64,000 nt of DNA from Hormiphora californensis (Eukaryota; Animalia; Ctenophora): the NCBI GenBank assembly GCA_020137815.1, contig CM035354.1, forward strand, positions 4,402,001-4,466,000, in the 5' to 3' direction. This document shows, piece by piece, positions 11,243-16,640 of this stretch; position 1 is the stretch's first letter; every line of letters starts with the position of its first letter. Below the pieces are notes generated by a model. The model searched no databases. It saw only the letters and a program-made list of their open reading frames with translations, and was not told the origin of the DNA. Made by a program: the position numbers and the translations under genes.

Positions 11243-14200
11243 ATGACAATGATATCAGCTATAGCAGAGAACCTCCACTCCATGGACCAAGTCCGAGAAC
11301 TATCCAGTGTGGCCCAATCTAAACGGCTGCGTTGTCTAAATCTCCATGGCAACACAATCCGTGCCATAACATCCCTGGACCGGTGTTACTATCTCACAGA
11401 ACTAGATCTCTCCTCTAACAAGATCACCCTAGTAACTGGTCTGGAGGCGTGTGAGAGTCTTGTCAAACTAAACCTCGCTTGTAACCTAATCAAAGCCCCT
11501 GCTGGACTGGATTTTCTTTATAAACTACAGACGCTAAACCTGTCCTATAATTCCATTGCGAGTGTCAAGTGTCTGGCACACTTTGCGGAGCCTAAATATC
11601 AGTTGGTTACACTTTGTCTCCATGGCAACCGATTGAATTCCGTTCCTGGGGTGTTGGCAGGGATAAAGAGAATTCTCTCTCTCCGAAATCTAACAATACA
11701 TGCCAACCCGCTGTGCAGAGATAATAAATACAGAAAGATATTTGGAGATTGTATGCCTCAGCTTGAATCTGTTGATGATTTCCCACGGACCGATGATTCT
11801 TTCTCTGATTCCTTAGTTACTGAGAGTTCTGTGTCTACACAACCCATAGCAACCCCGTATATAGACAAGGCTGTCAGGGGGTTCAGACACGAGCCAACCT
11901 CAGATATCTCCTCGGAGAGCGGTGTGCTCGAGACAAGAGGTCCACCAGAAACGAGGGGGAGAGAACTAAAAGTAGAGGGTGATGCAGACTATACAGAACT
12001 AATAAAACAGGTTCTAACAGTACTGAAAGAGGAGGAGAAACTAGACGATGTTCCTGTTAGAGATGAAACTCTCTCCTCCTCTGCATCCTCTAGTTCAGAG
12101 GAAATTCCTTCAGCAGTACCACCAAGACCTGACTCTCCAGATATCCCACCACCACCCCATAACTCTGATTTGGAGTCCCTCCAGACCACAAACAAGCTCC
12201 TGTTGGTTGAGCTGGAAGCGGAGCGGGAGAGAAGGTGGAAGAGTGAGAAACACATCACTGAGTTATCTGATAAACTGGTTAAGAATGAGAGATCGATCAA
12301 GGAATTTGAGGTGCTGAACAAGAGTAGTGAGGATGGGATAAATGGGATTAGAGAAATGTTGATGAAGGAGCAGGGACAGAAGATGAAACTGGCTAATTTG
12401 TTGCAGACATTTAAAGAGAAGCACCAAGATGTGATGAAACTACTGAAGGAACGAGAGGGAGAGTTAGAGAAGAGAGGCGGGGAGGTAGAGAGGTTAGAGA
12501 AGACTGTGGAAGGATTAAAACGGGGTATCACAGAGACAGCTAAACAGCACCGAATCTCTGTCCAGCAGGCTCGACAGGAAGCCCAGGTCCAGAAGAAGCA
12601 ATGTGAGTTGTTGCGACATGAGAAGGGTGAGATCACATCGCAAGTCAGGTCTCTCCAGGAGCTACTAGTTACGCGGGAGCAGGAGCATGTTCGGGAAAAG
12701 GGAAACCTAGTTCCCCTCGGCGGAGAGGAATTCAACAAACGGGTCCGGGAGCTGGTGGAAAATGAGCGGGAGAAGCATGAGCTGCAAAACAGGAATGTGA
12801 TACAGGGTGCTAAAGATTGGCAGCAGAAATACCTGGATTTGGAGAAGGAATTTAGGATAGCCCTGTACCTGGAGAACAAGAGATACTGAAACTCTGCACG
12901 CCTCCTACACCAAGTTATCTGGTCACCTTAGCAACGCTAGAACGGGAGCTTGTGAGATTGAAGAATGAGGACGAGATGAAGGGTGGGATGATTGAGAAGT
13001 TGAAGAAAAGTGTGGGGGAGCAGAGTTGTGCTATTGATAAACTGAGGAGGTGTAAAGGGGAGATAGAGGGTGCTAATAAGTTGAGGATATCTGCTTTAGA
13101 GAAGGAACTGGAACAATCCACACAGCAGGTACTGTACTGACAAACAATCCACTCAGCAGGTATTGTACTGACAAACTGACACAGACAACAGGTATTGTAC
13201 TGACAAACAAACAAACAAACTGATACATATATGCCCATCCACAGACAAACTGACTATGAATATACAGTAGATTCAATCACGCTACAATCACGGTAATTGA
13301 ATCACCCCCTCCTCGCCCTCTATTTCTTGTTTCCTATCGATTCATTCTGAATTCCGATACCCGCTGCCTAGTGGATTCTATGAGGGGCTCCGAAGGGGTT
13401 ACGTGTAACCAACCATTCCCTGTGCAGGTAGTGGAGATGACATCCTTTCAAAAGGAGAACACTATTCTAAAGGGGGAGATATCTGCCCTACAGTCTGTGA
13501 TAGAGGGTCTCCGGTCAGAGCGGGGATTGTGGTCTAAAGAACTCGCCGAACAGGTCAGTGGGTCATTAGTATATATACTGTACAGTGTACTAAACCTATA
13601 CATTCATGGTGGGCTGTGTTATTTTTTTTCGTCATAGTTTTTTTCCGTTTTGTATTTGAAATTAAAACAGGACCAAACGTATAAATATTATTTGTACTAA
13701 AATGAAGTGTCTCCGACCGACGTTTCTTCCATACCCACACTTCACTATTTTTACAGGGTGCCCAACTGTCTCTTGACCGTGGCAAGATAGAGAGTGAGTT
13801 AGAACGGTTAAGAAAGGAGAGAGTTATAGCAGCCGGGGAGATGGAGAGGCTGCAAGATACCGTGAAGATTAAGGAGTGTCAACTAACTGGTAAGGAAGAG
13901 ATATTTTATTCATTTTTTAGTTTTCTGTTTTTTGAATTTTTTTGAAGTGTCTTTGAAATGTTTTTTGAAGATCTATTAGCCTACTCCCCATCTCCCAACA
14001 CCATGGGTGTCAAGGGATGGGGAGCGTGTCCCGGGAGCCGCCACGTGGAGGCTGATCTTCGGAGAGGAACGACCATACAACAACATGTTTTGTGTAGGGG
14101 GCGAGGGGCAGCACCCCGCCCTCTACACAAAACATGCATTTCTCTCTCTCTCTCTCTCTCTCTCTCTCTCTCTCTCTCTCTCTCTCTCCCTCTCTCTCTC

Positions 14201-16640
14201 TCTCTCTCTCTCTCTCTCTCTCTCTCTCTCTCTCTCTCTCTCTCTCTCTCTCTCTCTCTCTCTCTCTCTATCTCTCTCTGTTGTATCGTCGTCCCTCTCG
14301 ACTCCCGACCCGCCCGGTTGCCCACGCTAGAGACAAGGCCTTCTCTAATCTGGCATTTCATCAGAACGGCAATCAGCCTCCACCCACATCACAATCTCAC
14401 ACTTGCCGGTGTTCCTTCCTCGCCCCCACACCAGCTACCCCTACCAGCTGCTAGACACACCTCTAACACTGTATGGAACTACCGGGATATACATGTTCCC
14501 GGGGAGAATAGTGCAACTGCCGCGGTCAGTCACATCTCCACCGTCCCTACAGAGAGAGGGGGTGTCTATACAGAGCTGCAGGAGGGGTGCCGGAGGGGGG
14601 TCAAGTCAGGAGAGACGACTCAGCAGTAGAACTAATCAATGGGTGGGAGGCCAGTATACGATCACGCCTGTGAAATGGAAGTGCCAGGGATGGATATAGT
14701 CTCTTTGGTCCGATGCGTGGACAACTAGGCGAGCATAGAAAACTGTAAGCAAGAAGAAGTAAGACTTGCTTCTTGTCTCGGACAGTCTGAAGTGAGTTGT
14801 GCTGCCACTTTTATAACTCCACACGACGCCTCCTCCACTGCCCTCCTGTATCGCACATTCTAGAGGAGCGCCTCCCCCACTGACACACTATGTGACGCAT
14901 GAGATCACCGCATAGAGAAGTAGCGAGCCATTGGAAGGACTGAAAGAGGGACATGTGATCAGGTCACATGGAAAATTAGGCATGTGACTAAAGAGCGTCC
15001 AATAGGGAGATGTTACGTGCTTGCTGCTCGTGTATTATTCTTTGTAGAGCAGGGAGAGAGAAGAAAAGAGAGAGGGAGACAGAGAGAAAAAGAGAGACAA
15101 ATAGAGAAGAAAAGGGAGTAAGAGAGAGAGATAGAGAAAAGAGGGAGAGAGAATTGAGGAAGAGATGGTATTAACTTTGTCGTTGCACTGTGATAATAAC
15201 ACGCAGACTGGATTATCTCTCTCTCTCTCTCTCTCTCTCTCTCTCTCTCTCTCTCTCTCTCTCTCTCTCTCTCTCTCTCTCTCTCTCTCTCTCTCTCTTT
15301 CTCTCTCTCTCTCTCTCTCTCTCTTTCTCTCTCTCTCTACCCGCCACCTTCCCACCAGATGCCCTGGACACGGTTGCCAAGTTAAAGGACGCAGTAACAA
15401 GACACCAGGCCAGGGTTGATGAACTAGGAAAAGAACATCAGAACCATACCAAGGATCTTATAGAGGTCTGTCTTTGTGTGGCTGATCACACTGTCATTTT
15501 GTGACGTCACAGAGCGCGCTGAGAGTGTTTGGTAAATCTCAAGTCTATCTATTATAACAGGACTCGGTGTATATCGATGCTTGACTTTATTTTGGAATAT
15601 TGCCAATGCTAACTATATCTCCAATTAAAAAACTACTAACTATCTCTCGAACAGGAAAGGGAGGAGGTAGAGGTGAGAGTAGAGGCACTGAGACAGGCTC
15701 TACATACCACTCAGGAAGAGAGGGACACTGCTGTGGAACAGGCTGAAAGTCTAGCTGAAGAGGTACTTGACTTGACATATCACATATTATCTGTTTTACT
15801 TACACGACCATCTCTCACAATTAATGTAAAGGAGGGCATAACAATTATCTGTGAGGTGAATTAGGACATTTCAAACTTCTCATTATGCCATTATACTAAA
15901 CGGTGATTTCACTAATCACACATGTATCCACTCAGGTTACTGTTCTGAAGAAGAAGTACCGAGATTTGAAGGGGCAATGGGAAGAGAAAGTACGGGTTCT
16001 GGAAAAAGTTGAAATGTAAGTTTTCAGTTGCCTTTAGCGTTTGCCTGTTCCACACTTCGAATTCCTTCTACCACTCAAATAAACATACTCTGAGAAAGTT
16101 TTGTGAGAGCTCTGATTTCCAACCAGTTCAACCCTATATAACCCTCTTTCTCCCCCAGATCGACCCAAGAGATGATCAGGGCCCACGGTGAGAAAGTAAG
16201 GTCCCTGGAGGGAGCGGAGGGGTCTGCACGTGCACGGTGTACAGAGTTAGAGGGAGAGCTACAGAGAACTGCAGAGACACACCTTGATAACATTGCCAAA
16301 CAGGTAAATACTAAATAGGTTCAGGGAAATTAGTTAACAGACCAAGTTTTCTTTTAATTTGTTTGTTCATGGAATAACAGCTTCTAGATAGCAGCCGTGG
16401 TATTACTAACTAACACCCCTCCCCTCCCTCCAGGAGCAAGAACACCAGGTGGCATGTCAGGCACTAAGGAACACACTGGAGGAGAGGAATGTGACCCACA
16501 CCACCCAGGTGGCCCAATTAGAGAGCGAAATGAGGGCCATCCTTCATCAGAGTAACCAGTTGAAACTGGAGAACGATGCTAAAATGAGCAAATTGGCCGG
16601 GGCTCTGGGAGAGTTTACCAACTTTCTACAACCTAAATGA
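11243..16640 (+). CDS. LRRCC1: Leucine-rich repeat and coiled-coil centrosomal protein LRRCC1, ~8 exons (11243-13128, 13428-13553, 13756-13889, 15359-15465, 15655-15762, ~15936-16015, 16159-16303, 16434-16640); two apparent +1 insertions near 12887 and 12945
   Basis: N-terminal LRRs (LNLHGN, LDLSSN, LNLSYN), LEAERERRWKSE, LEKEFRIAL, GLRSERGLWSKELAEQGAQLSLDRGKIE, QLESEMRAIL..KLAGALGE. Confidence 0.9.
13975..14790 (-). ncRNA. Putative ~0.8 kb structured non-coding RNA antisense within LRRCC1 intron 3
   Basis: Several nested helices, with G-U pairs mostly on the minus strand; upstream TATAAAAG; downstream A-rich tract and AATAAA; no credible ORF. Family not recognised. Confidence 0.5.
14140..14279. 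repeat. (CT)n microsatellite; similar tracts at ~15216-15337, 37811-37941, 42608-42690, 44915-44989 and 55552-55746
   Basis: Direct inspection; these tracts produce the spurious SLSL/ERER ORFs. Confidence 0.95.
14785..15020 (-). promoter_or_regulatory. Putative Pol II promoter for the intronic antisense unit
   Basis: TATAAAAG on - at 14815-14808; Inr-like TCAGAC about 27 nt downstream; TGACG at 14893; CCAAT boxes at ~14930 and ~14999; three CATGTGA E-boxes (14952, 14963, 14981). Confidence 0.5.

Follow-up and report, generated by a model that had tools for sequence, protein, structure and literature searches.

A conserved structured RNA unit, probably an RNA gene of unassigned family, nested antisense in an LRRCC1 intron of the ctenophore Hormiphora californensis

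We analysed 64,000 nucleotides (nt) of the ctenophore Hormiphora californensis (GenBank assembly GCA_020137815.1, contig CM035354.1, positions 4,402,001 to 4,466,000; this whole stretch is called the window), in which an earlier note, made from the letters only, had proposed a structured non-coding RNA gene inside an intron of LRRCC1. The intron contains a unit of ∼825 nt that folds beyond chance, is conserved in a second organism and is present in RNA libraries. In our view it is very probably a genuine conserved RNA gene. It is likely nested antisense in the LRRCC1 intron, with its own TATA promoter and a minus-strand transcript. No catalogued RNA family matches it, and we infer its strand, 3′ end and function from the observations below. 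Positions of the features are collected in Table 1.

The host is a leucine-rich repeat and coiled-coil gene, whose top named match in protein comparison is LRRCC1-like. Exon 3 ends at 13889 and exon 4 starts at 15359; the bounds of intron 3 follow from this join, which reads as a single open frame. As had been noticed, the intron is unusually long and GC-rich: 1469 nt versus ∼130-300 nt in the six neighbouring introns (some of whose ends are a few bases off), and a GC fraction of 0.50 versus 0.34-0.43. Nested intronic genes are reported to be common in a ctenophore genome (available text of PMC8527503), so the intronic position of the unit is not unusual by itself.

The core of the unit was found in 20 of the 22 sequencing runs listed, from 12 studies. 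Runs X1-X4 are possibly the window's own source, runs where the core has a small share (X12, X14-X19) were not counted as evidence, and the contigs of 4 of the 20 were compared in detail. One of them (X13, guessed to be DNA, and unspliced through promoter and intron) represents the second organism, called here organism B. A single contig covers 14649-15020 and joins promoter region and unit; another covers 13867-14083 and bridges the unit and the intron flank, with the same flanks as in the window. The segment 14084-14138 is not covered, and no contig spans the GA tract. At the 5′ boundary, the sites that differ in organism B number 5 of 137 inside (14649-14785) versus 24 of 161 outside (14786-14946; p = 0.0013), and in the worst case, with every unlisted difference placed inside, the count becomes 8 of 137 (p = 0.014). 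At the 3′ boundary the corresponding figures are 3 of 119 (13965-14083) versus 14 of 62 (13903-13964; p = 3×10−5), and 8 of 119 in the worst case (p = 0.003). The adjoining LRRCC1 coding exon differs at 11/146 and 14/146 sites. Among the differences listed, 14062-14082 and 14045-14056 are unchanged, and the terminal hairpin has 3 substitutions and an insertion of 2 nt. Variation is greater in the rod (14/173 sites plus 15-16 gap letters, with insertions and deletions within 14437-14545). Organism B has a GA tract at the matching place (loose end at 14288). The long open reading frames (ORFs) through this tract are disrupted in organism B by one- and two-base insertions or deletions, and the single such ORF searched, of 223 amino acids, had no Pfam match.

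This conservation in place bears on the idea that the unit inserted recently, as a non-autonomous retroelement or transposon, and is transcribed without serving the host. A 10-bp direct repeat (13893-13902 and 15157-15166) flanks the extra intron sequence, and excision would leave ∼205 nt, a size like that of the neighbours; an A-rich tract lies on the 3′ side, and a 64-bp promoter piece occurs at a second place in organism B. Against this, the flanks are the same in two organisms, the inside is more conserved than flanks and exon, the changes preserve the fold (see below), the unit has no second copy within the 64 kb, and the flanking repeat lies in GA-rich sequence. A recent insertion is disfavoured because the unit is conserved in place, and we hold it to be most improbable; the 'retroelement master' of the earlier note loses ground with it. 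The unit may stem from an old insertion, and the repeat may be an old target-site duplication or else chance within GA-rich sequence.

Eight of the core-containing runs are on record as RNA, all of them seawater or aquatic metatranscriptomes. In all three that were compared (X7, X10 and X20, from three studies, with 3, 2 and 13 contigs over the unit), RNA contigs cover 14307-14783. Their upstream ends are at 14783, 14763 and 14775, respectively, and the DNA run X13 continues to 15020. The RNA contigs stop 25-45 nt past the TATA box, a weak hint compatible with transcription beginning 27-30 nt beyond it; the RNA 5′ end is predicted at ∼14783-14790. On the other side, contigs extend to the end of the closing helix, at 14307 in X7 and at 14315 in X10. 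The internal T4 run at 14742-14739 is passed through. The loose end behind 14775 in X20 is presumably the first-read adapter, and points to minus-strand RNA provided that the library was made stranded in the usual way. No contigs of the 3′ part (13745-14138) were found in X7, X20 or the guessed-RNA run X22, an absence that can be false. The 3′ end of the RNA is placed either at ∼14307 (∼480 nt) or at ∼13964 (∼825 nt). One low-depth X7 RNA contig runs past 14307 with 41 letters matching nothing in the window; we treated it as a chimera, the other reading being an unexplained join.

Upstream of the unit, the minus-strand promoter motifs lie where they had been announced: TATA box TATAAAAG, CCAAT, three E-boxes on the minus strand and a half-site of the cyclic-AMP response element (CRE). 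Among the differences listed for organism B (three of the contig's differences stand outside that list), the TATA box is unchanged while its neighbours 14806, 14807 and 14816 are changed. The promoter region folds like shuffled sequence (z −1.2 on minus and +0.3 on plus, 30 shuffles each). At the other end, the AATAAA that was thought to mark the 3′ end, with an A-rich tract, is indeed present at 13910-13905; it reads AATAAC in organism B, and the surrounding tract is fast-changing and not conserved.

Two side observations concern this promoter. The 64-bp piece mentioned above, with its paired E-boxes (14957-15020), recurs in another organism-B contig of raised depth, whose remaining 542 letters do not resemble the window. 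The motif is thus common to another locus, perhaps as a shared promoter element, and might lead to sister RNA genes. In LRRCC1 intron 4 (15502-15625), two CCAAT words and a full CRE palindrome at 15502 may be further upstream elements of this minus-strand promoter.

Folding was scored as z relative to dinucleotide shuffles, blocks being scored without the microsatellite (30 shuffles each). The region 13900-14800 reached −5.4 on the minus strand and −3.5 on the plus strand, so that the structure announced exceeds chance. Values were −7.4 (minus) and −4.35 (plus) for the core, 14300-14788, and −7.2 and −4.55 for the rod. Of the 128 tiles across the window, 14051-14300 folds best. The 250-nt tile 14551-14800 folds by itself no better than shuffles, because the 5′ half of the unit pairs long-range, with partners outside the tile. 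Pairs of the G-U type number 31 of 255 on minus versus 13 of 240 on plus: with the z-scores of the core, the strand asymmetry that had been claimed holds to this extent.

The rod and its three-way junction, part of the initial proposal, belong to the minimum-energy fold, where most of their pair probabilities are high. So do the 19-bp closing helix 14734-14715/14327-14308 and the 5′ hairpin 14787-14741, both absent from the earlier description. The terminal hairpin pairs at 18 of 19 positions. The helix given as 21 bp and the hairpin given as 23 bp exist, with 20 of 21 and 22 of 23 positions paired. The 12-bp helix (14372-14383/14045-14056) is more complicated. All 12 of its pairs are Watson-Crick, and a perfect helix of at least 12 bp was present in 1 of 40 shuffles, but it is outside the best fold, because its strand pairs with 14639-14664 instead. 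Forcing it costs ∼20 kcal/mol, so the supposed nesting of this set of helices with the rod in one fold is not supported, and the helix belongs to an alternative. Forcing an 11-bp pairing with a bulged U (14636-14625/13985-13975) brings the 12-bp helix along and gives a second self-consistent fold. A variant at 14630, in 4 of 4 runs compared, changes the sole G-U of the 11-bp pairing to G-C; it fits the nested partner too.

Table 1. Positions of the unit, its predicted structural elements, its promoter and its host intron in the window
Feature	Position	Strand	Remarks
Conserved structured RNA unit	13964..14788	−	∼825 nt; conservation steps 14785/14786 and 13964/13965; RNA contigs 14307-14783
5′ hairpin	14741..14787	−	best fold; then T4 run 14742-14739
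Main domain	14308..14734	−	closed by 19-bp helix 14734-14715/14327-14308; pair probabilities 0.88-1.0
GAUC/GAUU stem in long bulged arm of main domain	14664-14660/14374-14370	−	best fold
Rod capped by three-way junction with two hairpins	14413..14611	−	z −7.2; insertions tolerated
20-bp helix 14299-14279/14082-14062	within 14062..14299	−	loops out (GA)n tract and 23-bp hairpin
(GA)n tract	14141-14279		looped out by 20-bp helix
23-bp hairpin	14137-14083	−	looped out by 20-bp helix
Strand able to pair 12/12 with 14383-14372	14045..14056	−	alternative fold
Strand pairing 11 bp plus one bulged U with 14636-14625	13975..13985	−	alternative fold
Terminal hairpin	13983..14025	−	best fold
Predicted promoter	14789..15020	−	E-boxes 14957-14986, CCAAT 14934-14930, CRE half-site 14893-14897; function inferred
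TATA box TATAAAAG	14808..14815 (minus reading 14815-14808)	−	motif; unchanged in organism B among differences listed
LRRCC1 intron 3 (host intron)	13890..15358	+	1469 nt; GT..AG ends, in-frame exon join

Stems of 15-23 bp, and an orientation antisense to the host pre-mRNA, would suit a hairpin-RNA gene diced into endogenous small interfering RNAs, or an antisense regulator of LRRCC1. Most stems are however broken every 4-8 bp, the RNA was recovered in long contigs, and weakly paired parts are conserved equally with stems (the most perfect hairpin being outside organism-B coverage). We consider such a function improbable.

Among the options listed in the earlier note, a ribonucleoprotein (RNP) scaffold is the best fit, and we lean slightly towards a stable RNP scaffold; that it binds proteins and works in the manner of 7SK is to us an even call. 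In such a scheme, RNA polymerase II (Pol II) would initiate ∼27-30 nt past the TATA box, using the TATA, CCAAT, E-box and CRE motifs. Pol III is disfavoured, because the minus strand of the unit has no run of five T and the internal T4 run is read through; T4 runs occur only at 14742 and 14132, none of them 3′ of the terminal hairpin. The product would be a stable RNA without poly(A) tail, protected by its long helices. Proteins may bind the core where it is constrained and weakly paired (14714-14625 and 14400-14350, including the GAUC/GAUU stem), and the rod tip and GA loop may be tolerant spacers. The 3′ strands (14056-14045 and 13985-13975) would pair with the core to form the second fold, which could bind or release a partner, or mark a precursor trimmed near 14307.

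Searches against known RNAs agreed with the idea of an unrecognised RNA. An Rfam scan of the window gave no match at gathering score, and scans by E-value gave microRNA-type matches to GA/TC tracts and hairpins only, with 2 weak matches for the core. No tRNA genes were found. A 20-base core pattern hit one locus in JGI metagenomes, by chance, on a contig with a bacterial transposase, and a 17-base pattern hit two loci in viral contigs, both unrelated. An LRRCC1 alignment search of the JGI metagenomes gave 166 pattern matches and no relative.

Several candidates were tried and rejected. For U3 or another box C/D RNA, there was no RUGAUGA match and no Rfam match, and neither candidate 3′ end has a CUGA nearby. 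For signal recognition particle RNA, the SRP54 motif of helix 8, as commonly given, and an Rfam match were both absent. For a hammerhead retrozyme, the lone CUGAUGA at 14364 overlaps its GAAA, there is no stem II, and no repeat copy exists in the window. The Sm site and the U1/U2 recognition motifs of Sm-class small nuclear RNAs (snRNAs), as usually given, were not found. An H/ACA end at 14284, a K-turn or selenocysteine insertion (SECIS) element at 14638/14391, a Y RNA or vault-type 5′ end, and an RNase MRP or P reading based on P4 were dropped after motif tests, and a MALAT1-type triple helix was dropped as the A tract is not conserved. The earlier note had likewise been unable to match the unit to signal recognition particle, RNase P/MRP or hammerhead RNAs.

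The RNase MRP/P definitions were taken from PMC13184271, PMC10966300, PMC2996960 and PMC4287351, as far as their texts were available. If the unit were a diverged RNA of RNase MRP or RNase P, the 11-bp bulged-U pairing (14636-14625/13985-13975) would be P4; it crosses the main closing helix in the same way that P4 crosses P2. Searches are moreover said to miss MRP RNA often (PMC2655684, available part). The conserved letters that customarily flank P4 are absent from this pairing. No GARAR pentaloop closed by at least 3 bp was found, no CR-I beside a 3-bp P5, and no correctly placed CR-V. There is no P3 hairpin between P2 and CR-I, where the segment pairs long-range, and no space for P3, P8 and P9. 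The Pol III signals of MRP, kept in all animals examined according to the accessible text of PMC4287351, are absent here. This identity appears quite improbable.

A Pol II-type promoter with TATA and CCAAT, and a size of this order, agree with an animal telomerase RNA. The unit could be a ctenophore telomerase RNA with an altered telomere repeat. Mnemiopsis has TERT (available part of PMC5405514), and ctenophores are not mentioned in the accessible part of a survey of animal telomerase RNAs (PMC8480181). None of the six hexamers that could template TTAGGG occurs on either strand in 13800-15400, which extends the absence of a template already noted. TTAGGG is, by the available text of PMC13605101, found in all animals bar arthropods and nematodes. 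Inspection of the folds, made with no basal-animal covariance model, revealed no template-adjacent pseudoknot, no CR4/5 with P6.1, and no box H/ACA 3′ domain with a conserved ACA end: ANANNA words are frequent (24 matches), and the ACA near 13961 is altered in organism B. To our knowledge, the short repeats near the 5′ end of the unit fit no known animal telomere repeat. We judge this possibility to be very improbable.

The case of 7SK is less simple. The earlier note had found no match to it; Rfam 7SK models indeed find none in the unit, and neither a U tail nor a Pol III terminator follows the terminal hairpin, but a GAUC/GAUU stem, two folds and an end hairpin are present. The unit might then be a highly diverged ctenophore 7SK, whose GAUC/GAUU stem binds HEXIM so that P-TEFb is kept inactive, and whose 3′ hairpin binds LARP7. 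Its U-flanked stem lies in the best fold, where GUGAUC pairs with CUGAUU; there is an alternative GAUC partner at 14057, and human 7SK also switches its GAUC pairings (PMC10083321, available text). The terminal hairpin and TATA box would fit as well. HEXIM is reported from choanoflagellates onward, ctenophores going unmentioned in the main text (10.1101/2023.02.19.529146, as available), and Drosophila offers a precedent in 7SK:94F, a Pol II-made, intronic 7SK-like RNA with mutated GAUC (PMC8406779, accessible part). Our literature search found no paper combining '7SK' with 'ctenophore'. However, the 7SK signature consists of two GAUC forming a 4-bp stem (consensus UuGAUC/uGAUC), in a gene that Pol III transcribes and that ends in poly-T (PMC5389472, available part). 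In the unit the second strand is GAUU, UU is absent, and there is no run of five T and none of the U tail that LARP7 requires (PMC3632141, available part). On balance, a diverged 7SK proper is unlikely.

Coming back to a minus-strand scaffold with a 7SK-like working, several results weigh against it. The double GAUC stem, the U tail and the terminator are missing, as just described, and the three GAUC words in the unit are the number expected by chance for its length. The second fold is 33 kcal/mol above the best one. The 3′ block has no strand asymmetry (z −7.1 on minus, −7.7 on plus), and here the claim of asymmetry fails. The 17 listed organism-B substitutions shift the minus-strand folding energy by −3.9 kcal/mol, versus +21.5 ± 8.3 for random sets (0/216 as good). 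This speaks for a preserved fold, in a test that mixes haplotypes and leaves out 11 further differences and all insertions and deletions; the plus strand gives −9.6 versus +16.6, likewise with 0/216, so the strands are not distinguished. Relative to the best fold, the changes at 14407, 14721 and 14785 clearly retain pairs, via G-U on minus, while those at 14534, 14538 and 14749 disrupt pairs and those at 14624 and 14630 are ambiguous. There is no two-sided compensatory change among the differences listed. Organism B is a close relative, so conservation is seen at short distance only. The RNA evidence consists of contigs, which are blind to strand, start, end and level, and DNA can occur in metatranscriptome libraries. 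The proposal that the RNA has no poly(A) tail comes solely from the kinds of library containing it and from the unconserved AATAAA.

Other features of the window were recorded on the way. Two frame shifts interrupt exon 1 of LRRCC1 (∼12887 and ∼12940, region 12885-12945), where six ctenophore-type orthologues read on; the shifts are likely assembly errors, possibly real insertions or deletions. TIM50, TMEM128 and LRRCC1 adjoin one another at 8979-12889. The TIM50 protein is identical at 315 of 320 positions (98%) to a Pleurobrachia bachei protein, and protein clusters at 63% identity to it include Mnemiopsis and Bolinopsis proteins, as suits a Pleurobrachia-like ctenophore; the TIM50-LRRCC1 neighbourhood is suggested to be common to Mnemiopsis- and Bolinopsis-type genomes. 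Genes with a BTB domain are duplicated in tandem at 5012-7858, and nucleoside-transporter genes stand in tandem at 57918-61279. A short element at 8175-8500 resembles a miniature inverted-repeat transposable element: its inverted ends are G runs, and it contains a 77-bp tandem repeat. At 33658-35294, two 11-bp satellite arrays of opposite orientation surround GA-rich sequence, and a 13-bp doublet is repeated at 31642, 33176 and 36357; arrays and doublets probably represent a foldback or repeat element.

Ctenophores branched off very early in animal evolution. In basal animals, 7SK and telomerase RNA are counted among the RNAs that are expected yet difficult to find (PMC2655684, available text). 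Our literature search, which covered largely papers outside subscription and without supplements, found no report of a ctenophore 7SK, telomerase RNA or comparable structured RNA, and no description of the present unit. We take the unit to be a real RNA gene, so far undescribed and unassigned to a family. It could be a housekeeping RNA still missing from ctenophores, or a new one. With some reserve, we propose either a new class of abundant ctenophore housekeeping RNA, without kinship to known families (a scaffold of 800 nt that has two states and carries a microsatellite in a loop open to change), or a first non-bilaterian counterpart of 7SK, made by Pol II and devoid of U tail. If the latter were true, RNA control of P-TEFb would be placed at the base of animals. 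Whether the unit proves to be a known RNP, very diverged, or a class of its own, the outcome would inform the timing of RNP-based regulation in animals. The locus, being syntenic and defined, gives a direct handle on structure, via orthologous introns, and on partners, via pull-down.

Compared with known systems, the unit shares with ctenophore nested intronic genes (PMC8527503) its location within the intron of another gene, and differs in being a non-coding structured RNA, none of which is mentioned in the available part of that work. Animal telomerase RNAs (PMC8480181, available part) have a Pol II-type promoter, a length of several hundred nt, long arms and a three-way junction in common with it, but the unit is without TTAGGG template, template-side pseudoknot, P6.1 and conserved H/ACA end. 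With RNase MRP/P RNA (PMC13184271 and PMC4287351, as available) the likeness lies in a long-range bulged-U helix that would cross the closing helix and in a long rod; GARAR loop, CR-I, CR-V, P3 and Pol III terminator are what the unit does not have. From 7SK snRNA, including 7SK:94F (the scaffold of HEXIM, LARP7 and MePCE), the unit differs by its GAUC/GAUU, the absence of U tail, Pol III terminator and Rfam match, its 480-825 nt and its inner GA tract; it resembles it as a mid-size structured non-coding RNA with a TATA promoter, a U-flanked GAUC-type stem, alternative pairings and a 3′ hairpin.

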